From contig JANXBG010000002.1 of NCBI GenBank assembly GCA_025060715.1, positions 11,294 through 75,293 of the forward strand: 64,000 nt of DNA, written 5' to 3'. Every line of letters begins with the position of its first letter. The stretch's first letter is position 1. Shown one piece after another: positions 8,243 to 31,505 of the stretch. The notes beneath the pieces were generated by a model. The model had not been told where the DNA came from, did not search any database, and was given only the letters and a program-made list of their open reading frames with translations. The stretch is from a candidate division WOR-3 bacterium (GTDB lineage: Bacteria > Hydrothermota > Tepidihabitantia > Tepidihabitantales > DTDR01). A program made the translations under genes and the position numbers.

Positions 8243-8636
8243 TTTTACCTCCCCTTTTAAAATAAATAAATTATAAAAGAAATATATAAAAAGTCAAAAT
8301 AAACCCTTATAGTAAATCAATGTTTATGGATTGGAAAAAAGTAATACTTTTAAACATAATTTTCCCTTTAACAAGTTTGTAACCAAAAACTTTTCCTTAA
8401 AGAGCCGGACTATAATTGGAAAAGATTTTTAAAATTACCTTTATTATATTAAGATGGAACATATAAAGTGACATAATATATAGCCCTTATTTGTAAGGTC
8501 AAATTAAATTAAGTCATTAAATATTATCCATCATCTTATAAAAGAGAGCAAAGAACTTTTAAAAGAGGCAAAGACCGAGGAGGATTTAAGGATTGGCTTT
8601 GAGAAAATTCTTGAGCCAATAAAGAATTCTTTAAAT

Positions 8637-9911
8637 TTGAAATATAGTTCAAGATATGAAAAATCTATTTATACTGGTCGGCCCGATGCGGTTCATGGGC
8701 AGTTAATTATTGAATATGAAAAACCTAATGTCTTTAAGAATAAAAGGGCAATTGATAATGCCTTTGAGCAGTTGGTAAGATATATTAAAGGGCTTTCTGA
8801 GGAGGAGAAAAAGGAACTTTTTATCTATGAAGCAAAATATATTGGTGTTGCTTTTGATGGTGATAAAATCTTTTTTGTCCGTTATAAAGGTAAGAAAGAA
8901 AAACCAAAAATTGAATTAGAAGATAAAGATTTCATTATTGAGGGACCTTATGATTTTAATATTGAAAGTGCCAAAACTTTTTTAATCCATTTAAGAGGTC
9001 TATCTCGCCTTCCTTTAACGGCTGATAATCTTTGTAAAAGATTTGGTGAAAAAGGGGTTGCCTCAAATGTTATCCCTGCTTTTGTTAATGCTTTAAAATA
9101 TTGGGGAAATCAAACTCAAATAAAAACATTCTTTGATGAATGGAAAAGATTATTTGGAATTGTTTATAGTGAGGGTTTTAATAGTAGCTATGGTAAAGGG
9201 ATAGATAAATTTTATCAGGTTTATAATGTAAAAAGAGAGGCTAATTTTCAAGAAATCCTATTTTCCATTCATACCTATTTTACCTTTTTAATGAAACTTT
9301 TAACTGCTGAAATATTAACTTTAAGAGAAACCTCTTTCTCTTCTTCCTTTATATCTTCTCTTATTCATTTTTCTGATGAGGAACTTAAAAGAAAATTGGA
9401 AGAGATTGAAGATGGTAGTATTTATGCTCAAAAGGGGATTACCAATTTTTTAGAGGGCGATTTCTTTCGTTGGTATCTTTCTGCCCTTGATTCTCCCGAA
9501 TTAAAAGATGCGATTAGAGAGATTGCTCGTGGTTTAGAAGAGTTTGAACCAGCAACAAATATCATTGAGCCAAATTTAACAAGAGATTTACTTAAAAAAT
9601 TATATCAATATTTAGTTCCCAAGGAAATTCGTCACAATCTTGGTGAATATTATACACCTGATTGGCTGGCAGAATTATTATTGAATGAAGTTGGTTATGA
9701 TGGTAATCTTAATAAAAGATTACTTGACCCGGCTTGTGGTTCAGGCACTTTCTTGGTTTTGGCAATCCAGAGAGCGATAAAATATGGTAAAGAGAAAGAA
9801 AAATTACCTGATATTGAGATTATTAAAAGAATATTAAAGAATATTTGGGGATTTGACCTAAACCCCTTAGCAGTAATCTCTGCCCGAACCAATTATTTAC
9901 TTTCCTTTTAG
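8637..9911 (+). CDS. N-terminal fragment of a Type IIG-like RM enzyme: PD-ExK nuclease motif plus N6-adenine methyltransferase motif I (frame-disrupted)
   Basis: GRPDAVHGQLIIEYEKP (PD...ExK-like) near the N-terminus and LLDPACGSGTFLV (SAM-binding motif I) near the C-terminus; frame stays open upstream to 8508 with no ATG (TTG/ATA starts only); ends at TAG 9909-9911 while frame +2 continues the protein. Confidence 0.6.
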   Translation: MKYSSRYEKSIYTGRPDAVHGQLIIEYEKPNVFKNKRAIDNAFEQLVRYIKGLSEEEKKELFIYEAKYIGVAFDGDKIFFVRYKGKKEKPKIELEDKDFIIEGPYDFNIESAKTFLIHLRGLSRLPLTADNLCKRFGEKGVASNVIPAFVNALKYWGNQTQIKTFFDEWKRLFGIVYSEGFNSSYGKGIDKFYQVYNVKREANFQEILFSIHTYFTFLMKLLTAEILTLRETSFSSSFISSLIHFSDEELKRKLEEIEDGSIYAQKGITNFLEGDFFRWYLSALDSPELKDAIREIARGLEEFEPATNIIEPNLTRDLLKKLYQYLVPKEIRHNLGEYYTPDWLAELLLNEVGYDGNLNKRLLDPACGSGTFLVLAIQRAIKYGKEKEKLPDIEIIKRILKNIWGFDLNPLAVISARTNYLLSF

Positions 9912-10015
9912 GTGATTTAGTAAATGAATATATTAATAAAGGTGGCAAGGTTGAAATACCTGTTTATCTTTGCGATTCAGTTTTAACTCCTAAATCTTTA
10001 AAAAACACCGGTAAT

Positions 10016-11713
10016 TTGCTTGATGAAGTGTATGAAATTTCTACCTCTGCTGGAAAGTTTCTAATTCCTATTGAATGGATAAAAGAGGGTCACATCCTGT
10101 TAGCAGCAACCCTGATTGAAGAGATGGTAAAAAACCGATATTCGCCAGACGAAGCATTAATAAGATTTAAAGAAGAGGGATTAGCCTTCACAACTAACCA
10201 AGATATAGTTAAAAATTTTTATTCCCAAATTTTAAATTTGGAAAAGGAGAATAAAAATGGTATTTGGGCAAGATTTTTAAAAAATGTTTTTGCACCAATG
10301 ATGGCAGGAAAATTTGACTTTGTTGTCGGCAATCCACCTTGGATAAGATGGGAGTATTTATCTAAGGAATATCGCGAGGCTACAAAAAATTTATGGGATT
10401 TGTATGGTTTATCAATAATAAAAGATTCTAAAGACACTCTTGGTAAAGGCAAAAAAGATTTCTCAATGCTTTTTACCTATGCTTCTTGCGATAATTATCT
10501 AAAGAAAGGTGGAAAATTAGGATTTTTAATCACCCAAGAAGTCTTTAAATCAAAAGGTGCGGGTGAAGGATTTAGAAGATTTCAAATTGGAGATAAAGAA
10601 TATTTAAAAGTATTAAAGGCGCACGATTTAGTTTCCATTAAACCTTTTGAAGGTGCGGCTAATAAAACTGCAATGATAATTATTAAAAAGGGAGAGAAAA
10701 CAGAATATCCTCTTCCCTATTTTGTTTGGAATAAAAAGAAAGGAACCGGCAAAATTCAAACTGATAATCTTTTAGAAGAAGTTCTGCCATTATTACAAAA
10801 GAAAAAATATATTGCTAAACCAATTGGCTTAAATGTTGGTGCTTGGCAAACTTTATTTATAGAATTAAAAGATTTATCTATGATTGAAGGTAAAAATTAT
10901 TATAAAGCTCAATCTGGCATAATTGATGACCCCTATGGAGTTTTTTGGATAGAAATAAAACAAATTCTTTCTGATGGAACTGTTATTATAAGTAATTTAC
11001 CTGAGAAAGGAAAAAGAGAAATTTCTAAAATAGAAATAAAAGTAGAACCGGATTTAATTTATCCCTCTTTACGAGGCTCTGATATCCAACGATGGCAGGC
11101 TAAATCTAAATTTTTTGTTTTCTTAACACAAAACCCTAAAAAAAGAGAGCCAATACCAGAGACAGATTTTAAAAAATATTTTCCAAAAACCTATAATTAT
11201 TTTATTAAATTTAAAGAAATTTTATTAAGTAGTAGCTCAAAAATGGTGAAAAGACTGCGTGAAGAAAAGGCCTTTTATGCAATGTTTGGTGTTAGTACTC
11301 ACACCATGAGTAAATATAAAGTTGTTTGGAAACAAATGTCCAATGATATTTATGGGGCAGTAATTTCTCAAATAAAAACTCCTATTGGATATAAAATTAT
11401 TATTCCACTCCATACTACTGCTTTTATATCCACCAATAATGAAGATGAAGCCCATTATCTTTGTGCGATTATCAATTCCAAACCAGTTAGGGAGTTTATT
11501 AAATCTTTCTCTTCTGCTGGTCGGGGTTTTGGCACACCTTCGGTAATGGAACATATTGGTATTCCCAAATTTGACCCAAATAATAAAATTCATAAAGAAC
11601 TTTCTTTGCTTTCCAAAGAGTGTCATAAACTAAAAGAAGAAGGAAAAGATAAAGAGATAGAAAGATTAGAAGATAAGATTGATTTATTAGTTAAAAAATT
11701 GTTTAATATTTAG
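10016..11713 (+). CDS. C-terminal fragment of the same RM enzyme: methyltransferase motif IV (NPPW) plus putative target-recognition domain
   Basis: FVVGNPPWIRWEY (N6-adenine MTase motif IV) followed by about 450 aa of putative target-recognition domain; this frame is open from 9857, overlapping the upstream fragment by about 55 nt, so a single frameshift joins them. Confidence 0.6.
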   Translation: MLDEVYEISTSAGKFLIPIEWIKEGHILLAATLIEEMVKNRYSPDEALIRFKEEGLAFTTNQDIVKNFYSQILNLEKENKNGIWARFLKNVFAPMMAGKFDFVVGNPPWIRWEYLSKEYREATKNLWDLYGLSIIKDSKDTLGKGKKDFSMLFTYASCDNYLKKGGKLGFLITQEVFKSKGAGEGFRRFQIGDKEYLKVLKAHDLVSIKPFEGAANKTAMIIIKKGEKTEYPLPYFVWNKKKGTGKIQTDNLLEEVLPLLQKKKYIAKPIGLNVGAWQTLFIELKDLSMIEGKNYYKAQSGIIDDPYGVFWIEIKQILSDGTVIISNLPEKGKREISKIEIKVEPDLIYPSLRGSDIQRWQAKSKFFVFLTQNPKKREPIPETDFKKYFPKTYNYFIKFKEILLSSSSKMVKRLREEKAFYAMFGVSTHTMSKYKVVWKQMSNDIYGAVISQIKTPIGYKIIIPLHTTAFISTNNEDEAHYLCAIINSKPVREFIKSFSSAGRGFGTPSVMEHIGIPKFDPNNKIHKELSLLSKECHKLKEEGKDKEIERLEDKIDLLVKKLFNI

Positions 11714-19689: not shown

Positions 19690-19789
19690 TTGAAAAAAAT
19701 CAATAAATAATAATTTGCCGAGGGCGAGACGGAGGGAGTGTAAGGTCAAGAGGGGAAGGAGGGATGAAAATCCCGCCCTCGGCAAATTA
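19690..19789 (-). terminator. Long-stem hairpin followed by a U-run downstream of clpB (intrinsic-terminator-like, unusually large loop)
   Basis: Perfect 16-bp inverted repeat taatttgccgagggcg (19711-19726) / cgccctcggcaaatta (19774-19789) overlapping the clpB stop codon; 47-nt loop; on the minus strand it is followed by AUUAUUUAUUGAUUUUUUUC. Confidence 0.5.
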
Positions 19790-22342
19790 CTCTTTTTTAA
19801 ACTTTATTTCTCCACCTTCCAAATAAGCCACTATTTTTTTCGGCTTCTCATCCAAAAGTAATTTTGCTAAAGGATTTTCTAAAAGCCTTTGAATAGTCCT
19901 TTTTAGAGGCCGAGCACCAAATTCCTTATCAAACCCCTCATCGGCAATCTTATCCTTTACCTTCTCTTCTACCTCTAAAACCACACCCATTTCTCTTAAT
20001 CTAATTTTAAGTAAATTTAATTGAATGTCAATAATCTTTTTTATATCTGAATAAGATAGAGGGTTAAAAACCACTATCTCGTCAATTCGATTAAGAAACT
20101 CGGGACGAAAATTCTTTTTTAATAATAGTAATAATTCTTGTTTACTTACCCTTCCTTCTCTGATAAGTTCAGTTCCTAAATTAGAAGTCATAATAATTAT
20201 AGTATTTTTAAAATCAACGGTCCTCCCGTGACCATCGGTAAGCCTTCCGTCATCCAAAATTTGTAAAAAGATATTAAAAACATCCGAATGGGCTTTTTCA
20301 ATCTCATCAAAGAGAATAACCGAATAAGGTCTTTTTCTCACTGCTTCGGTTAACTGACCACCTTCTTCATAACCAACATAACCCGGAGGCGCGCCAATCA
20401 ACCGGGAAACCGTATGCTTTTCCATATACTCTGACATATCAATCCTTATCATCGCATCTTCACTATCAAAAAGAACAGCAGCTAAACTTCTTGCTAATTC
20501 GGTCTTTCCCACACCCGTTGGACCTAAGAAAAGAAAAGAACCAATTGGCCTTTTCTCCTCTTTTAGACCAACTCTTGCTCTTCTTATCGCATCGCAAACC
20601 AACCTAACCGCCTCATTTTGATTAACTAACCTTTGATGAATATAATCTTCTAATTTCTTTAACTTTTCTTTTTCCGATTCTAAAAGTTTTGTCACCGGAA
20701 TACCTGTCCAAGAAGAAACCACTTCGGCAATATCTTCACTGTTAACCACTTCTCTTAATAACCTCTTCCCATCTTTATCAAGTTTTTCTATCTCTTCTTC
20801 TAAATTTCTTAACTCTTTTTCTAATTTTGTTAATCTTCCATATTTCAATTCTGCTGCTCGATTTAAATCATAAACCCTTTCTGCCTTCTCAATCTCCTTT
20901 TTAGTTTTTTCAATCTCTTCCTTTATCTTACTCACTTGGTTAATAATCTCGCGCTCCTTTTGCCATTTTTCTTCCAATTCTTGTTTCTCTTTCCTTAACT
21001 TTGTTAATTCCTCTTCAATTGCCTTTAACCTCTCTTTTGCTTCTTTATCCTCTTCTGATTGAAGAGAAATCCTTTCCATATCCAATTGCCAAATCTTTCG
21101 TTCAATCTCATCAATCTTTTTTGGCTTGGAAGTAATTTCCATTTTTAACTTCGCTGCTGCTTCATCTACTAAATCAATTGCTTTGTCAGGCAAAAATCTA
21201 TCCGAAATATATCTTTTTGATAAAACTGCTGCTGCCACTAATGCTGAGTCACTTATCTTCACTCCGTGATGAACTTCATATCTTTCTTTTAATCCTCTTA
21301 AAATTGAAATTGTCTCCTCTACCGAAGGTTCATTAACAAAAACAGGTTGAAATCTTCTTTCTAAAGCCTTATCTTTTTCAATATATTTCCGATATTCCTG
21401 AACAGTGGTAGCACCAATACATCTCAATTCTCCCCGCGCTAACATTGGTTTTAAAATGTTTGCTGCATCAATGGCTCCCTCTGCGGCACCAGCACCAACA
21501 ACCGTATGCACCTCATCAATAAAAAGAATAATCCTACCCTCTTCTTCCTTAATCTCTTTCAATACCGCCTTTAAACGGTTTTCAAACTCTCCCCGATATT
21601 TTGTACCGGCAATTAATGCTCCCATATCCAAAGCAAAAATTCTTGTATCCTTTAATTTTTCTGGCACATCCCCTTTCACAATCCTTTGAGCAAGCCCTTC
21701 CACAATTGCTGTTTTACCCACACCCGCTTCGCCAATCAAAACCGGATTATTCTTTGTCCTTCTTGATAATATCTGTATAACCCTTCTTATCTCCTCATCC
21801 CGACCAATCACCGGATCTAATTTCCCTTCCTTGGCCATTTCAGTTAAATCTCTACCAAATTTTGCTAAGGCTTCATAAGTCTCTTCAGCATCCGGTGAGG
21901 TAATCCGCTGATGACCCCTTATATCTTTTAAACCATTTAAAAATGACTCAATTGTTAAATTATAATTTCGAAATAAGTTTTTTAAAGAAGAAGTTTCCAG
22001 TAAGGCAAGAAAAAGATGCTCAGTTCCCGCATACTCATCTTTCATCTGTTTCGACCACTCTAACGCCTTATCTAAAACCCTTTTCGTCTCATAAGCAAGA
22101 TAAACATTTGTTGAATACTCTATTACTGGTTCCCTTGCCAAAAGATTTTCTACATCTTCTTTAAAGCTTTTTAAATTTATTCCAATTTTTTTAAGGATTT
22201 TAAAAACCACCCCTTCCTCTTCTGTTAACAACGAAAAAAGAATATGGATAGGTTTTATTTCTGGATTTTTCTTTTCTTCAGCAAGCTCCTTTGCTTTAAT
22301 TATTGCCTCTTGGGCTTTTTGAGTAAATTTCTCTAATAACAT
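19787..22342 (-). CDS. clpB: ATP-dependent chaperone ClpB (two AAA+ modules with coiled-coil middle domain)
   Basis: Clp N-domain, two Walker A sites ([16 protein letters not shown]), long coiled-coil M-domain between them; 851 aa. Confidence 0.9.
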
Positions 22343-22391: not shown

Positions 22392-24056
22392 TTATTCTAA
22401 ACTTTTTAATATTTGTATGCCTTCCTTTGCAACTTTTTTAACTTCGCCATCTTCTTTAGAAAAAGGCCAGGGTCGGGCAATTTTTTTTAAAAGAGGTAGG
22501 GCTTCTTTATCTTTTAATTTTATTAAAGAATTAATTACCTCAATTTTTACTATTGATTCTTCAGAATTTATTGCCTTTCTTAAAATATCAACAGCTCTTT
22601 TGCCCCCAATTTCGGAAATTGCCCAAATTGCCTTTCTTTTTACACTTGTCTCGGGATCTTCAAGCATTTTAATAATTTCTTCAAAAACTTCATCTGCCCT
22701 TAATATTCCTAAAACCTCTAAGGCAGTTGCACGAACAATTGCTAACTCATCTTTTAAAAGCTCTAACATTGTGTTTATAATCTCCTTTCTTTTTTCAATT
22801 GGCGGCAAAGCAACTATTTTGCTGATTGCCAAAGCAGAATGAAATCTAACCAAAGAATTCCGCTCTTTACAAATTTCTAACAAAACTTCAATACTTTCTT
22901 TATTCTTAATATCGCCAAGAATCTCAATAATTTTTATTCTTTTCTCCTCCTCTTTAATTTTTATCAATTCATTAAGCAAAATATTAACGCTTTTTTCACC
23001 CAATTTAGTTAAAGCCCTTTTTGCTAAATCAGCAATTGTTGAATTTGGCGAAGATAATAAATCAAGAAGATAGGAACAGGTTTTCTCACTTTTAATATTT
23101 GCTAAAGCATTTACCGCTGCTATTCGCACATTAATATCTCGGTCATTAAAAAGATTTGCTAAACCTTCAATTGCCCTTTCGTCACCAATTTTTCCTAAGA
23201 TTTCACAAATACAGGTTTTTAAGACAATACTGGGATTATTTAAAAGAGATAATAAAGGATATAAAACAATCTTGCCTTCTTTTATTAATATCTCCATTGC
23301 CTTTAATCTTTTATTTAAATCATCACTCATTAAGGCATTAAGATAAGGAGAAATAATAGCTTCACCAATCATTGTCAATGCTTTAATTGCTGCCTCGCGA
23401 ACAATTTCGGATTCATCATATAAAGAGATATAGGCAAGGGCTTCGCCAGCTTTCTTATCCCCAATCTTTCCTAAAGCTTCACAAGCGGAACTTCTTACCC
23501 AATGGCTTTCATCCTTTAATTTTTCTAAAAGATGAGGAAGGGCTTTCTCATCACCAATCTCACCTAAAGCTGCACAGGCACAGGCTCTTACCCAAAAGTT
23601 GAGATCATAAAGTAATGGAAAGATATTTTCTATTGCCTTTTTGCTTTTCAAAATCCCTAAAGCTTCACAAGCGGAAGTTTTTATTAAAGGGTCTTCATCT
23701 TTTAACAGTTCAATCAAAATATCTTCACTCTCCTTTGCCTCTAATCGGGCTAATAATTGACAAAATATTCTAATTACGGGCTTTTCTATTTTTTTACTTT
23801 CTAAACTTTTTACCTTTTCTCTTTCAATTTTTAACATCTCTAAGATATAAGGCACTACCCTTTTTCCTATTTTCAAAAGTTCTTCGTTGATCTTCTCTCT
23901 AATAATTGTGTTTGTCTCCCTTGCCAAAGTTTCTAGTAAAAGAAAAATTGCCGGTGCTGTTTTCAGAAAGGCCAATTCTTCTATCGCCTTTAATCTTTTA
24001 CTTATTTCTGGATGGAAAAGTTCCCTCTTCAGCCTCTCAATATCATCCATATCCAA
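22392..24056 (-). CDS. HEAT / PBS-lyase repeat protein
   Basis: Many tandem repeats of the form ...ALGEIGDEKALPHLLEKLKDESHWVRSSACEALGKIGD... typical of PBS-lyase HEAT-like repeats; 554 aa. Confidence 0.7.
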   Translation of the reverse strand: MDMDDIERLKRELFHPEISKRLKAIEELAFLKTAPAIFLLLETLARETNTIIREKINEELLKIGKRVVPYILEMLKIEREKVKSLESKKIEKPVIRIFCQLLARLEAKESEDILIELLKDEDPLIKTSACEALGILKSKKAIENIFPLLYDLNFWVRACACAALGEIGDEKALPHLLEKLKDESHWVRSSACEALGKIGDKKAGEALAYISLYDESEIVREAAIKALTMIGEAIISPYLNALMSDDLNKRLKAMEILIKEGKIVLYPLLSLLNNPSIVLKTCICEILGKIGDERAIEGLANLFNDRDINVRIAAVNALANIKSEKTCSYLLDLLSSPNSTIADLAKRALTKLGEKSVNILLNELIKIKEEEKRIKIIEILGDIKNKESIEVLLEICKERNSLVRFHSALAISKIVALPPIEKRKEIINTMLELLKDELAIVRATALEVLGILRADEVFEEIIKMLEDPETSVKRKAIWAISEIGGKRAVDILRKAINSEESIVKIEVINSLIKLKDKEALPLLKKIARPWPFSKEDGEVKKVAKEGIQILKSLE

Positions 24057-28315: not shown

Positions 28316-29053
28316 ATGAAAGGTGTTGTCCTTGCTGGTGGTTTAGGAACAAGGTTATATCCTTTAACAAAAGTAACTAATAAACATCTTCTACCGGTCT
28401 ATAACCAGCCGATGATTTTTTTTCCAATTAAAAAATTGGTATCTGCAGGGATTGAAGATATTTTGATTGTTACTGGTGGAAATAATGCCGGTGATTTTTT
28501 AAGATTATTAGGCAATGGAAAAGAATTTGGTTTAAAGAGATTACATTATACTTATCAAGAAGGAGAGACCGGCATTGCTGCTGCCTTAGCCTTGGCAGAA
28601 GATTTTGCGGATGGCGATAAACTGGTGGTTATCCTTGGTGATAATATCTTTGAAGAGGATATTAAAGAATATGTGGAAAAGTTTGAAAAGCAAGAAAAAG
28701 GAGCAAAGATTTTCTTAAAGGAGGTAAAAAATCCAGAAAGGTTTGGGGTGCCGGTTTTTGAGAATGGTAAAATAATAAGAATTGAAGAGAAGCCAGAAAT
28801 ACCAAAATCACCTTATGCCGTTACCGGAATTTATATGTATGATAATCAAGTATTTGATATAATAAAAACTTTAAAACCTTCCAAAAGAGGAGAATTGGAG
28901 ATTACCGATGTGAATAATAGATATTTAGAAAAGGGAGAACTTACTTATGAGATTTTAAAAGGTTGGTGGGCCGATGCTGGTACCTCCTTTGAAGCCTATT
29001 ATCGGGCAATAAGTTTAGTAAGAGAGATGTATTTAAAGGGAAAAAATGAATAG
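28316..29053 (+). CDS. Sugar-phosphate nucleotidyltransferase (glucose-1-phosphate thymidylyl/uridylyltransferase-like)
   Basis: N-terminus MKGVVLAGGLGTRLYPLTKVTNKHLLPVYNQPMIFFPI typical of RmlA-like NTP-transferases; 245 aa. Confidence 0.75.
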   Translation: MKGVVLAGGLGTRLYPLTKVTNKHLLPVYNQPMIFFPIKKLVSAGIEDILIVTGGNNAGDFLRLLGNGKEFGLKRLHYTYQEGETGIAAALALAEDFADGDKLVVILGDNIFEEDIKEYVEKFEKQEKGAKIFLKEVKNPERFGVPVFENGKIIRIEEKPEIPKSPYAVTGIYMYDNQVFDIIKTLKPSKRGELEITDVNNRYLEKGELTYEILKGWWADAGTSFEAYYRAISLVREMYLKGKNE

Positions 29054-31505
29054 AAAAGAAGAAGTCTATCTATTAGATGGCCATTCCTTAGTTTTTCGTT
29101 CTTATTATGCTTTTATTAGAAACCCCCTGAGAAATTCTCGGGGTGAAAATACTTCTGCCATTTTTGGTTTTGTTAATACTTTAAGAAAGATTTTAAAAGA
29201 AAGAAAGCCAAAATATCTTGCCTGTGTTTTTGATTCTAAGGCTCCAACCTTTCGGCATAAAATATATTTAGAATATAAAAAGATAAGACCCGAAGCACCC
29301 AGCGATTTAAGATACCAAATTCCAGTTATAAAAGAGATCTGTCAGGCTTACGGAATAAAGGTAATAGAAATTTCCGGTTATGAGGCGGATGATGTGCTTT
29401 GCACCTTAGCAAAAAGATTGAAAAATATGGGATATAAGGTTTATATTGTTGCTACTGATAAAGATTTATTTCCGATTGTTGATGAGGATATTATTGTTTA
29501 TGATACTTATAGAGAGATTTTTTTTGATCGGGAAAAGATAAAAGAAAAGTATGGTATTGAGCCGGAAAAGATAGGAGATTATCTTGCCTTAGTGGGTGAT
29601 AAGATTGATAATATTCCTGGAGTAAAAGGAATTGGTGAAAAAACAGCAATTGAGATTTTAAAAAGATACGGTAATTTAGAAAAAGCCTTAAAAGAAGATA
29701 TCAGATTGAAAGGAAAAGAGGAGGAGATTTTATTTTCTAAAAAATTGGTTAATCTAAGAGAAGATGTGCCAATTGAATTTTCTATAAAAGATTTGGAAAT
29801 AAAAAATAAAGATAATAAAAAACTTCTCGCAATCTTTAAAGAACTGGGATTTAAAACCTTTCTTAGCGATTTTGAAGAAGATAAGATTGATATTGAAAAG
29901 TCAATAAAAATAACTAATGATATATCCCAATTGGAAATAGAAGATAATTTTGCCTTTTTAATAACCGAAGAAAAGGTTTATATTGGTAATAAAAAAGGTA
30001 TCTATGAAGGAAGTTTAACAAATTTAAAAGAACTTTTTTTAAGCAATAAGGAGAAGATTACCTATGATTTAAAAGAGCAATATAAGTATTTAGAGGATTT
30101 AGAATTAAAAAATATTTTTGATATTAAAATTGCTGCTTATCTTTTAGAACCCGAAAGAAAAAGGTTTCTTTTAGAAGATTTAATTTTATCTTATCTAAAA
30201 ATCCTTAAAAAAAGCGTTTCACCTAAAGAAGGGGTTTATTATATTTATTTACTATACCAACAACTTTTACCCGAAATACTTATAAGGAATTTAAGTGATC
30301 TTTTTTATAATATTGAAATGCCTCTAATCGCTTGCCTTTATCGCATGGAAAAGAGAGGAATAAAAATTGATATAGAATTTTTTAGACAATTAGCAAAAGA
30401 ATTAGAAAGAGAAATTTTTTCTTTACAGAAAGAGATTTATAAATTAACGGGCTTAGTATTCAATCTTAATTCTCCAAAACAACTATCTGAGGTTTTATTT
30501 GACAAATTAAAATTACCAATTCCTAAAGGAAAAGGGAGGTCCACTGCTTCCGAAGTTTTGCTTGAACTTCTTCCCTATTCACCGGTGATTGAAAAGATTT
30601 TACGTTATCGAGAATTGAATAAAATTTTAACTACCTATTTAAAACCTTTTCCTGAGATGTGTGATAAAAACCATCGGCTCCATACCTATTTTGATCAAAC
30701 AAAAGCAGCTACTGGTAGATTAACCTCTCTTTCACCTAACTTACAAAATATTCCTATTCGTGGTGAATTGGGGCAGAAAATTAGAGAGGGCTTTATTTGT
30801 GAAGAAGGGTATAAATTGATTTCGGCTGATTATTCCCAAATTGAATTGAGAATTTTAGCCCATATTACGGAAGATAAAAACTTAATAGATATCTTTTTAG
30901 AAGATAAAGATATCCATACCGCAACAGCTGCTAAGATTTTTAGGGTAAAAGAAGAAGAGGTAAAAGAGGATATGAGAAGATTTGCAAAAATAGTAAATTA
31001 TGGTCTTATTTACGGAATGAGTGATTATGGTCTTGCAGAAAGTTTAAGATTAAAAAAAGAGGAAGCAAAGGAGTTTATGGAGAATTATTTGAATAATTTT
31101 CCCAGAGTAAAAGAATGGCAAAAAGAGGTTATAGAGAAAGCAAAAGAGGAAGGTTTTACCAAAACTATTTTAGGAAGGCCAAGGTATTTTCCTAATTTGT
31201 TAGCACCCAATAAAACTTTATATGAACAGGCCAAAAGACAAGCAATCAATGCTCCTATTCAAGGAAGCGCGGCAGATATAATTAAAAAGGCAATGATTGA
31301 GGTTGATAAAAAGCTAAGAGAAAATAACTTTAATATTGGTTTAATTTTAACTATCCACGATGAACTTTTATTTGAAATAGAAGAAGAGCGAATAGAAGAA
31401 GCAAAAGAGATTATTAAAAAGACAATGGAAAATGTTTATCCTTTAAAGGTGCCCTTAAAAGTAAATATTGGTATTGGTAAAAATTGGGCTTTAGCCCATC
31501 CTTAA
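29046..31505 (+). CDS. polA: DNA polymerase I (5'-3' exonuclease domain plus family A polymerase domain)
   Basis: N-terminal 5'-3' exonuclease/FEN motifs (LLDGHSLVFRSYYAF, HhH region) and family A polymerase motifs (DYSQIELRILAH, RRFAKIVNYGLIYG, HDELLFE); 819 aa; overlaps the upstream gene by 8 nt. Confidence 0.9.
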   Translation: MNRKEEVYLLDGHSLVFRSYYAFIRNPLRNSRGENTSAIFGFVNTLRKILKERKPKYLACVFDSKAPTFRHKIYLEYKKIRPEAPSDLRYQIPVIKEICQAYGIKVIEISGYEADDVLCTLAKRLKNMGYKVYIVATDKDLFPIVDEDIIVYDTYREIFFDREKIKEKYGIEPEKIGDYLALVGDKIDNIPGVKGIGEKTAIEILKRYGNLEKALKEDIRLKGKEEEILFSKKLVNLREDVPIEFSIKDLEIKNKDNKKLLAIFKELGFKTFLSDFEEDKIDIEKSIKITNDISQLEIEDNFAFLITEEKVYIGNKKGIYEGSLTNLKELFLSNKEKITYDLKEQYKYLEDLELKNIFDIKIAAYLLEPERKRFLLEDLILSYLKILKKSVSPKEGVYYIYLLYQQLLPEILIRNLSDLFYNIEMPLIACLYRMEKRGIKIDIEFFRQLAKELEREIFSLQKEIYKLTGLVFNLNSPKQLSEVLFDKLKLPIPKGKGRSTASEVLLELLPYSPVIEKILRYRELNKILTTYLKPFPEMCDKNHRLHTYFDQTKAATGRLTSLSPNLQNIPIRGELGQKIREGFICEEGYKLISADYSQIELRILAHITEDKNLIDIFLEDKDIHTATAAKIFRVKEEEVKEDMRRFAKIVNYGLIYGMSDYGLAESLRLKKEEAKEFMENYLNNFPRVKEWQKEVIEKAKEEGFTKTILGRPRYFPNLLAPNKTLYEQAKRQAINAPIQGSAADIIKKAMIEVDKKLRENNFNIGLILTIHDELLFEIEEERIEEAKEIIKKTMENVYPLKVPLKVNIGIGKNWALAHP

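Follow-up and report, generated by a model that had tools for sequence, protein, structure and literature searches.

The window analysed here, a stretch of 64,000 nucleotides from a candidate division WOR-3 bacterium (contig JANXBG010000002.1), carries a restriction-modification (RM) gene between hbd and a T9SS cargo gene. The coding sequence is distributed over two reading frames (Table 1). Frame 0 is open from 8508, directly after a TAA, to the TAG at 9909–9911, and frame 2 is open over 9857–11713 with a closing TAA at 11711–11713. When frames 0 and 2 are joined, a protein of 1068 residues is obtained. The gene has 31% GC, and in its non-coding stretches each frame shows 52–107 stops per 1068 codons; against that background the two stop-free coding pieces, of 467 and 601 codons, extend far beyond chance. 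No further stops occur across 3.2 kb and the GC content of the gene, 0.308, is that of the window. In public assemblies the two ORFs are called as genes of 424 and 561 amino acids, currently named ‘N-6 DNA methylase’ and Eco57I-domain protein. A sequence-only reading of this DNA had proposed the two-frame layout with an overlap at 9857–9911, and the layout, the overlap and the motif sequences that it quoted were all recovered. Its placement of the gene between hbd and the T9SS cargo gene was borne out by the neighbourhood, as was the absence of partner genes such as BREX or DISARM components, none being found at the locus or at the orthologous locus. Across about 75 loci of the family no conserved partner was detected and no neighbour family recurred in more than four; no methyltransferase neighbour was present here or at the orthologous locus, and small downstream genes at two family loci were unrelated to each other.

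The 5' end of the gene is degenerate. That the N-terminal frame lacks an ATG had been claimed before and was found to be correct. In frame 0 no ATG, GTG or TTG codon precedes the TTG at 8637; before it only ATT (8508 and 8523), ATC (8526) and ATA (8538) are available. The intact orthologue starts with ATG AAA GAG where the window has the ATT at 8508 following TAA, and the near-invariant ‘LAD’ of the family's N-terminus is absent from the window protein. As a counterpoint to inactivation, this ATT, 9 nt after AAGG, could start translation weakly, and both halves are otherwise perfectly intact, as in a gene that is still expressed. A promoter scan of this AT-rich DNA returned 33 consensus matches against 16 expected from shuffles and none could be singled out. 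In frame 2 the first canonical start is the TTG at 10016, downstream of motif III.

Table 1. Features of the RM locus, in positions of the window and residues of the repaired protein.
Feature	Position	Strand	Details
Degenerate 5' end	8494–8510	+	AAGG Shine-Dalgarno-like box 8495–8498; in-frame TAA 8505–8507; ATT 8508
Upstream piece, frame 0, residues 1–467	8508–9911	+	Nuclease-like domain, helical connector, MTase motifs X, I and II
PD-(D/E)XK-type motif GRPDAVHGQLIIEYEKP	8676–8726	+	D60 8685–8687; E69 8712–8714; E71 8718–8720
MTase motif X, LGEYYTPDW	9639–9665	+	Residues 378–386
MTase motif I, LLDPACGSGTFLV	9720–9758	+	Residues 405–417
MTase motif II, WGFDLNP	9846–9866	+	
Frameshift site, TCC TT/TTA G	9903–9911	+	2 extra nt at 9906–9907, leading to TAG at 9909
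Downstream piece, frame 2, residues 468–1068	9908–11713	+	Motifs III and IV, remainder of MTase, TaqI_C-like domain
MTase motif III, YLCDSVL	9965–9985	+	
Breakpoint zone, similarity to syntenic orthologue lost	9986–10204	+	Downstream modules resemble other genomes' alleles
MTase motif IV, VVGNPPWIRWEY	10322–10357	+	NPPW is residues 609–612
TaqI_C-like recognition domain	about 10750–11580	+	Spans residues 853–1006

The repaired protein consists of an N-terminal PD-(D/E)XK-like domain, a helical connector, a gamma-class N6-adenine methyltransferase (MTase) with motifs X, I and IV (NPPW) and a C-terminal TaqI_C-like recognition domain, and its motif order agrees with that of the gamma class (PMC2582602). 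An AF2 model built on a 105-sequence alignment reached a pLDDT of 91.4 and a pTM of 0.91; a run with 16 close homologues gave an unusable pLDDT of 47. In the model D60, E69 and E71 are placed on a beta-hairpin that forms part of an alpha-beta-beta-beta-alpha-beta unit. Members of the PD-(D/E)XK superfamily are recognised by an acidic/Lys triad that is conserved on the beta2-beta3 hairpin, and such a triad is seen in the putative N-terminal nuclease domain. In the family alignment D60 is invariant (105/105) and E69 nearly so (102/105), while position 71 is Lys in 59 and Glu in 45 of the 105 members, with E71 in the window protein and its clade. An E-x-E variant of the nuclease site is also present in BamHI. 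The Lys of the ExK motif in the sequence-only reading corresponds to K72, which the family does not conserve, unlike D60, E69 and position 71 (Lys or Glu).

A single PADLOC profile (REase_MTase_IIG PDLC03630) was matched over residues 9–1067 at E = 6e-288, covering profile positions 10–1082 of 1100. The 120 homologues listed were all single proteins of 968–1234 aa with none of half length. Both results uphold the earlier view that the two ORFs are one gene. The family is large, with ~2000 clusters at 50% identity below E = 1e-30 and thousands of homologues of ~1070 aa that are not split. Under the Type IIG definition used (PMC4081073) the repaired protein is a Type IIG enzyme, based on the full-length PADLOC match, the confident single-chain model and the unsplit homologues, and it has both the gamma-class motif order and the C-terminal recognition module. 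The uninterrupted translatable gene that is also called for is lacking in the three assemblies (+2 frameshift at 9906–9907, no canonical start before 8637). Cleavage that is stimulated by AdoMet and falls at a fixed distance, together with methylation of the same site, is a further hallmark of the type.

The earlier assignment was right as to Type IIG architecture, which the HMM check on the repaired protein supported over the full length of the profile, but membership of the MmeI family (Type IIL) did not hold up against the MmeI-family models. MmeI_Mtase scored 23 bits, under its cutoff of 27, and MmeI_N, MmeI_hel, MmeI_TRD and MmeI_C were unmatched. A separate scan of N-terminal domains gave weak matches to MmeI_N in 2 of 36 family members (best E = 0.008). 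Pfam Eco57I (PF07669) was matched at 60.9 bits over residues 444–699, against a cutoff of 25.3. Membership of BREX, DISARM and MADS was rejected on scores far under the cutoffs; for BREX PglX the NCBIfam scores were 15–50 bits against cutoffs of 400–900 (best 50 against 400) and no BREX genes are nearby. Single-sequence and profile searches of PDB sequences returned matches to Type I M subunits only, with none for the N-terminal domain, and did not reach MmeI (5HR4), DrdV (7LO5) or BpuSI. In structure comparison the fold of the repaired protein agreed with M.TaqI, CamA and MmeI.

The frameshift was evaluated against an intact orthologue of 1070 aa at the same hbd/T9SS-cargo locus in the related WOR-3 genome GCA_039801885.1. 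At the junction the intact orthologue reads TCT TTA GGT, aligned as CTTTC--TTTAGG to CTTTCCTTTTAGG in the window, a net gain of 2 nt that was judged against the syntenic orthologue and 15 aligned homologues. The single indel that had been proposed to join the frames is thus short, as suggested, but not a simple one of 1 nt, although one added T would also restore the frame with one extra Phe. Two further MAG assemblies of this species, GCA_033580715.1 and GCA_026417775.1, share exactly this frameshift and align over it with zero gaps, while they differ from the window at 6 and 8 SNP sites, and as an exact look-up of the upstream ORF of the gene in the window found no record, the window represents a third haplotype. 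The absent start codon and the remodelled 5' end are common to all three assemblies. A scan of JGI metagenome contigs with a variable gap yielded no further junction alleles. Split frames were found at 7 other full-length family loci, two of these being N-gaps and a third falling in a T9 run, at positions unrelated to that of the window.

Selection on the gene was evaluated from the comparison with the orthologue. The dN/dS over residues 1–466 was 0.11 (dS 0.82), similar to that of neighbouring housekeeping genes, which spanned 0.02–0.16 (hbd 0.06, DUF4177 0.02, orf160 0.16 and ruvX 0.12). Together with a GC content equal to that of the window, this indicates that the RM gene has been long resident and constrained. 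The match between the N-terminal dN/dS and that of the neighbours also indicates that inactivation was recent, as does the absence of other stops from the 3.2 kb. The haplotypes differ, among other changes, by L365V, which affects a Leu shared by at least 90% of the family, by L401I and by K666N, and the flanks differ by 4 synonymous changes and 1 replacement. The contrast in polymorphism between gene and flanks is suggestive but, with about 5 events per side, not significant and too small as a test.

Based on these results the locus is probably a pseudogene, only recently inactivated, that once encoded a stand-alone single-chain Type IIG RM enzyme and has been resident in this WOR-3 lineage from a time before a sister species split off. 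Its decay, of an ordinary kind, would rest on the insertion of 2 bases and the loss of the start codon. Among the three fates that the sequence-only reading had offered (inactivated, phase-variable or hidden by a consensus error), inactivation is favoured by the three haplotypes, the lack of a repeat tract and the missing start. Judging from the architecture of the family, the TaqI_C-like domain of the intact form would read a short asymmetric site, the gamma-class MTase (NPPW) would methylate an adenine of that site using AdoMet, and the PD-(D/E)XK domain would cleave DNA that lacks the modification, at a fixed distance and probably once two enzyme molecules have paired; a companion methyltransferase would be unnecessary. 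With the first lesion the 5' end is without its ATG and without the dozen conserved residues that open the protein. The second, the net +2 nt at 9906–9907 between motifs II and III, would halt translation at 9909. Possible products would be a nuclease-connector-half-MTase fragment devoid of the recognition domain and a fragment from TTG 10016 or later devoid of motifs X and I–III, both presumably inactive. As cutting and methylating reside on one chain with one recognition domain, a single frameshift would remove both activities and the loss would be non-lethal.

The gene is mosaic. Nucleotide identity to the orthologue is 84% up to 9985, no alignment is obtained over 9986–10204 and identity is 75–78% thereafter. 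In blocks of 60 residues, residues 1–480 track the syntenic orthologue at 80–95%, whereas residues 481–660 and 781–960 are only 43–60% identical to it and track alleles of other genomes, P0027 (92% in one block) and P0003/P0004 (70–88%). The frameshift may be a scar left when recombination with another family allele swapped specificity modules imprecisely or failed to complete the swap, homology to the orthologue ending 75 nt past it. Those 75 nt are still orthologue-like, however, which means that the indel is not at the breakpoint itself, and we consider such a scar rather unlikely. It would in any case be an account of origin that is compatible with the pseudogene verdict and no rival to it.

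A frameshift introduced by assembly or consensus error, be it a systematic one common to all three sequences, with the gene intact in the cell, is improbable. All sequences are from metagenome-assembled genomes (MAGs), the three haplotypes included, each of which is a consensus sequence; the site is a short C2/T4 run in which a single T would repair the frame, and the seven split loci, with their N-gaps and T9 run, indicate that MAG copies of this family are error-prone. Against this, three consensus sequences distinct in their SNPs are exactly alike at the site, the difference from the orthologue and the 15 homologues is +2 nt and not 1, and a second independent defect, the missing start with the remodelled N-terminus, is common to all three.

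Still less probable is a deliberate switch or attenuation, through phase variation by repeat slippage or through programmed −1 frameshifting at CC-UUU-UAG and weak initiation at ATT, leaving little full-length enzyme. Slippage can be favoured when a stop codon occupies the A site behind UUU, and at this site a stop directly follows UUU; an AAGG box precedes the ATT at 8508 and both halves are undamaged. In the RM gene, however, no repeat tract able to drive phase variation was found, the site being only T4 and the A7 at 11138 the sole tract of at least 7 bases. Perfect re-pairing of tRNA-Phe is possible only at +1, the wrong frame, the required −1 slip landing on CUU, and the 90 nt downstream show no folding beyond that of shuffled sequences (z = −0.81); no stimulating RNA structure was detected. 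Homologues are unsplit and the other splits are at unrelated positions. Since a repeat tract, a slippery site and a downstream RNA structure are all missing, neither phase variation nor recoding is supported. The conjecture that the ATT start and the stop-adjacent −1 slip site form a built-in attenuator for traces of a full-length, potentially self-toxic enzyme, the halves staying open as the gene is still used, is highly doubtful. In a milder version, the indel could be a swap scar in a hyper-mobile, module-shuffling Type IIG clade so far found only in uncultured bacteria and archaea. Least probable of all is a two-subunit enzyme: both ORFs are long and called as genes, and split DNA methyltransferases such as M.AquI and M.EcoHK31I exist, but the catalytic domain, a Rossmann fold, would be divided between motifs II and III, a start at TTG 10016, past motif III (YLCDS), would leave that invariant segment untranslated in the second piece, and none of the homologues listed has the same split.

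If the gene is dead, as the pseudogene reading holds, the sole restriction-type gene of the window has been lost, and the matching m6A motif should be missing from the organism, as should this barrier against foreign DNA. The finding matters little for the genome, and the two ORFs are to be annotated as a single pseudogene. Its intact relatives, a large family for which no characterisation was found, have exchangeable recognition modules and carry either Lys or Glu at the third catalytic position; they could supply new specificities for enzyme discovery.

Among known systems, Eco57I-type Type IIG enzymes, with R~gammaM~TRD in one chain (PMC3874165), share size (about 1000–1070 aa) and domain order with the repaired protein. 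Eco57I requires a separate companion methyltransferase (PMC3874165), whereas no such gene adjoins here or in the homologous loci examined. A lone gene free of a separate methyltransferase is a feature of the MmeI family and is seen here; MmeI and DrdV are lone single-chain RM enzymes of Type IIL (PMC2582602; PDB 5HR4, 7LO5), to which the protein does not belong at the level of family sequence. It differs from them in its nuclease motif, D-X8-E-X-(K/E), and from MmeI in the spacing of motifs I and IV (~200 aa compared to ~120 aa), and their structural score was no better than that of CamA, PglX or Type I M subunits. The MmeI family is also marked by cleavage 20/18 nt from the site and by modification of a single strand. 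PglX is not known to carry a nuclease motif. CamA, M.BseCI and M.TaqI are stand-alone gamma-class enzymes with a TaqI-like C-terminal domain that have neither the ~375-residue N-terminal nuclease-like domain nor the helical connector. Plasmid-borne relatives in cultured bacteria are only ~30% identical, and no biochemically characterised member of the PDLC03630 clade was found. The nearest intact member of this putative Type IIG clade, P0001, comes from a candidate division WOR-3 MAG, where it is annotated ‘N-6 DNA methylase’; it lies at the same locus and is 74% identical to the window protein. The window copy differs from the intact members in being frameshifted, in having no start codon and in carrying C-terminal modules from other alleles.

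The two open frames of the sequence-only reading, the lack of an early ATG and the quoted motifs were all borne out by the ORF list, three-frame translation and motif positions, the earliest ATG, GTG or TTG in frame 0 being TTG 8637. Uninterrupted runs of 467 and 601 codons in the two coding pieces are not due to chance, since the frames of this gene (31% GC) hold 52–107 stops per 1068 codons in their non-coding stretches. Joining 8508–9908 to 9908–11710 gave a repaired protein of 1068 aa that matched the PADLOC profile PDLC03630 (REase_MTase_IIG) end to end (residues 9–1067 on profile positions 10–1082 of 1100, E = 6e-288), as well as two further related full-length PADLOC profiles. One Type IIG profile thus spans both ORFs. 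A word-indexed protein search returned 6325 matches, the best 120 of which were single proteins of 968–1234 aa at 60–74% identity, none of them half-length, and the proposal that the two ORFs form one gene is upheld on both counts. The source names in this set of 120 included WOR-3, Kapaibacteria, Patescibacteria, Omnitrophota, Marinimicrobia, Caldisericota, Victivallales and a clostridial family. In an exhaustive profile search, E < 1e-3 was reached by 8933 clusters (50% identity) and E < 1e-30 by 2006. Species-representative genomes yielded 80 loci, archaea among them, every one from a MAG; plasmid-borne relatives in cultured bacteria, annotated "N-6 DNA methylase", share only about 30% identity. 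In Pfam, Eco57I (PF07669) and N6_Mtase (PF02384) scored above their cutoffs and TaqI_C below, and residues 1–350 had no match; NCBIfam gave only sub-threshold matches to the methyltransferase core (e.g. BREX-2 PglX, 50 bits with the cutoff at 400).

Positions of the gene's open frames and motifs and of other window ORFs matched in PADLOC
Feature	Position	Strand	Remark	Source
Frame 0 open run	8508 to TAG 9909–9911	+	directly after TAA 8505–8507	ORF list, three-frame translation
Frame 2 open run	9857 to TAA 11711–11713	+		ORF list, three-frame translation
Motifs quoted in the sequence-only reading	8676–8726, 9720–9758, 10322–10357			located in sequence
851-aa ORF	19787–22342	-	PDC-M37B/DolB, more weakly AAA+ protein TRIP13	PADLOC
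554-aa ORF	22392–24056	-	HEAT-repeat models	PADLOC
819-aa ORF	29046–31505	+	PolA-like model RTasPolA	PADLOC

Public contigs from MAGs GCA_033580715.1 and GCA_026417775.1 were found via the neighbouring Hbd protein. The upstream ORF (424 aa) is the same in both, and the second (561 aa) is present on the one contig long enough for it. Alignment to the window extended over 16,789 nt with 6 mismatches and 10,074 nt with 8, with zero gaps in both, and the frameshift junction was identical in all three assemblies. As exact look-up of the window ORF1 protein returned no database record, the window represents a third haplotype. A random assembly error is unlikely given a gap-free, identical junction in three haplotypes that carry mismatches elsewhere; only a systematic error shared by all three assemblies is conceivable. 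At the sequence level, inactivation is evident in the three haplotypes. Within the gene the haplotypes differ by three replacements, L365V (at a Leu that at least 90% of the family share), L401I and K666N, and by two silent changes, against four silent changes and one replacement in 13 kb of flanks, which is suggestive of relaxed constraint on the gene in numbers too small to test. The 3.2-kb gene holds seven of the 12 sites that vary across the shared 10–17 kb; differences from the public loci at 9599–9602 (AT.A to GG.T) and 9708–9710 (C.T to A.A) are clustered multi-nucleotide changes.

The closest homologue, P0001 (1070 aa, 74% identity), occupies the same locus of another WOR-3 MAG, with hbd on one side and the T9SS cargo gene on the other, and its DNA is 83–85% identical to the window in the flanks and in the gene at 8550–9985. 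The orthologue junction reads AAT TAT CTT CTT TCT TTA GGT (NYLLSLG) and that of the window ...CTT TCC TTT TAG G; the net difference is +2 nt in the window. A single 1-nt indel had been proposed, but this disagrees with the 2-nt difference and with 15 of 15 aligned homologues, none of which has the additional residue that would result from a 1-nt repair. The gene start is ATG AAA GAG in the orthologue versus TAA ATT AAG in the window, where a near-invariant "LAD" segment is missing from the N-terminus; the DNA here is AT-rich and leaves the 5' indel history ambiguous, as an in-frame 6-nt gap fits about as well as the 14-nt gap placed by MAFFT. Weak initiation at ATT is conceivable, given an AAGG box 9 nt 5' of it. 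In the sister genome an extra gene for a 494-aa beta-propeller (FG-GAP/PQQ-like) lies between the restriction and T9SS cargo genes (L003 13226–14710); in the window these two abut (11713 and 11715).

Phase variation by repeat slippage would find little to act on, as the frameshift site is C2T4 and the sole homopolymer of at least 7 bases in the gene is A7 at 11138. A homologue in a Saccharibacteria MAG (L030 6195–6210) is frameshifted within a T9 homopolymer, which may reflect a sequencing error or true phase variation in that genome. Programmed ribosomal frameshifting at the junction would need a -1 shift, onto CUU, but perfect tRNA-Phe re-pairing occurs at +1, in the wrong frame. Moreover, the 90 nt downstream fold like shuffles (z = -0.81), homologues are unsplit, and where real frame breaks do occur (five others in about 60 full-length loci) their positions are unrelated, one being in a T9 run. 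A two-subunit enzyme is countered by the position of the break between methyltransferase motifs II and III and by the first canonical downstream start, TTG 10016, which comes after motif III (9965–9985).

Inactivation must be recent, as the frameshift TAG is the sole internal stop across 3.2 kb. Between window and orthologue, dN/dS (Nei-Gojobori) was 0.11 for residues 1–466 (dS 0.82), climbing to 0.23 and 0.27 further downstream, and spanned 0.02–0.16 in four neighbouring genes (hbd 0.06, DUF4177 0.02, orf160 0.16, ruvX 0.12). With dN/dS like that of its neighbours and GC content equal to that of the window, the gene has long been resident and under constraint, and did not arrive recently. Nucleotide homology to the orthologue ends at 9985, 75 nt past the frameshift. 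The gene is mosaic: residues 1–480 track the orthologue (80–95% per 60-residue block), residues 481–660 other alleles, among them P0027 at 92% in one block, and residues 781–960 the homologues P0003/P0004 (70–88%, against 43–60% to the orthologue). The locus thus reads as a vertically inherited gene, pseudogenised not long ago, from a Type IIG family that is large, mobile and mosaic. The finding is an ordinary one, another member of an already known enzyme kind.

Many MAG contigs stop inside family genes, typically near residues 390–650 (L002, at window 10074; L062–L065, L070, L072, L076–L079, L083, L084), probably because assemblies break where N-terminal DNA, which is conserved, gives way to modules that vary between strains. 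Two MAGs hold two family copies each (L063/L064; L030/L078). At L074 6001–7560 and L075 2698–4215 the match is restricted to residues ~5–521 though the contig runs on for kilobases; each is either an N-terminal remnant or a copy whose C-terminal half is too different to be recognised.

Among 105 family members D60 is invariant and E69, E24 and E51 are found in 102, 102 and 95, respectively. The third catalytic position, 71 (window 8718–8720; family alignment A4), is dimorphic (Lys in 59 members, Glu in 45), so that with D60 and E69 conserved the consensus of the family is a classical D-X8-E-x-K. The window belongs to a high-identity clade with E-x-E, in which all have Glu at 71 except for P0037 (Lys). 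An E-x-E site can be active, as in BamHI. The Lys assigned to ExK from sequence alone was K72, which is not conserved (P, H, S, N, L or R in relatives). An AF2 model of the repaired protein based on the 105-sequence alignment (pLDDT 91.4, pTM 0.91; 16 close homologues as input gave pLDDT 47) places the motif residues on a hairpin of strands 61–63 and 66–70, within a unit that runs helix-strand-strand-strand-helix-strand, as would be expected for a PD-(D/E)XK core. Whole-chain fold match lists were saturated by methyltransferases. A Pfam scan of 36 N-terminal domains gave few matches, all weak, with nucleases as three of the top five families (MmeI_N, PDDEXK_9, PDDEXK_1). The N-terminal domain is likely a nuclease.

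No neighbouring family recurred in more than four of about 75 loci searched for a conserved partner gene, in keeping with the claim that none accompanies the gene, and small downstream genes at two loci were unrelated to each other. A solitary gene is the norm for this family. The claim that it is the only defence-type gene in the window stands within the ORFs sampled: ten other large ORFs gave only PolA-like, AAA+ and HEAT-repeat matches in PADLOC, and the three tabulated we take to carry housekeeping domains. In three unrelated genomes a two-gene cassette directly follows the homologue (L004 13269–15865; L014 3863–6457; L073 5071–7676), encoding a 149-aa protein with a weak Mrr_cat match and a 712–717-aa protein without a Pfam domain. 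Elsewhere a 69-aa HTH_3 protein, similar to restriction-modification controller (C) proteins and absent from the window, stops 8 nt 5' of the homologue start (L005/L006 9784–9993; L007 229–438).

How the intact enzyme works is inferred from its architecture, and the general Type IIG/IIL build (PMC4081073) put forward from sequence alone is supported. The specific kinship with MmeI proposed alongside it is not: Pfam MmeI_Mtase stayed under its cutoff (23 bits against 27), PDB searches with the single sequence and with profiles matched Type I M subunits only, and no single known enzyme stood out in structural comparison. MmeI is likewise encoded by a solitary gene (PMC2582602), as is the norm in this family, whereas Eco57I needs a companion methyltransferase (PMC3874165).
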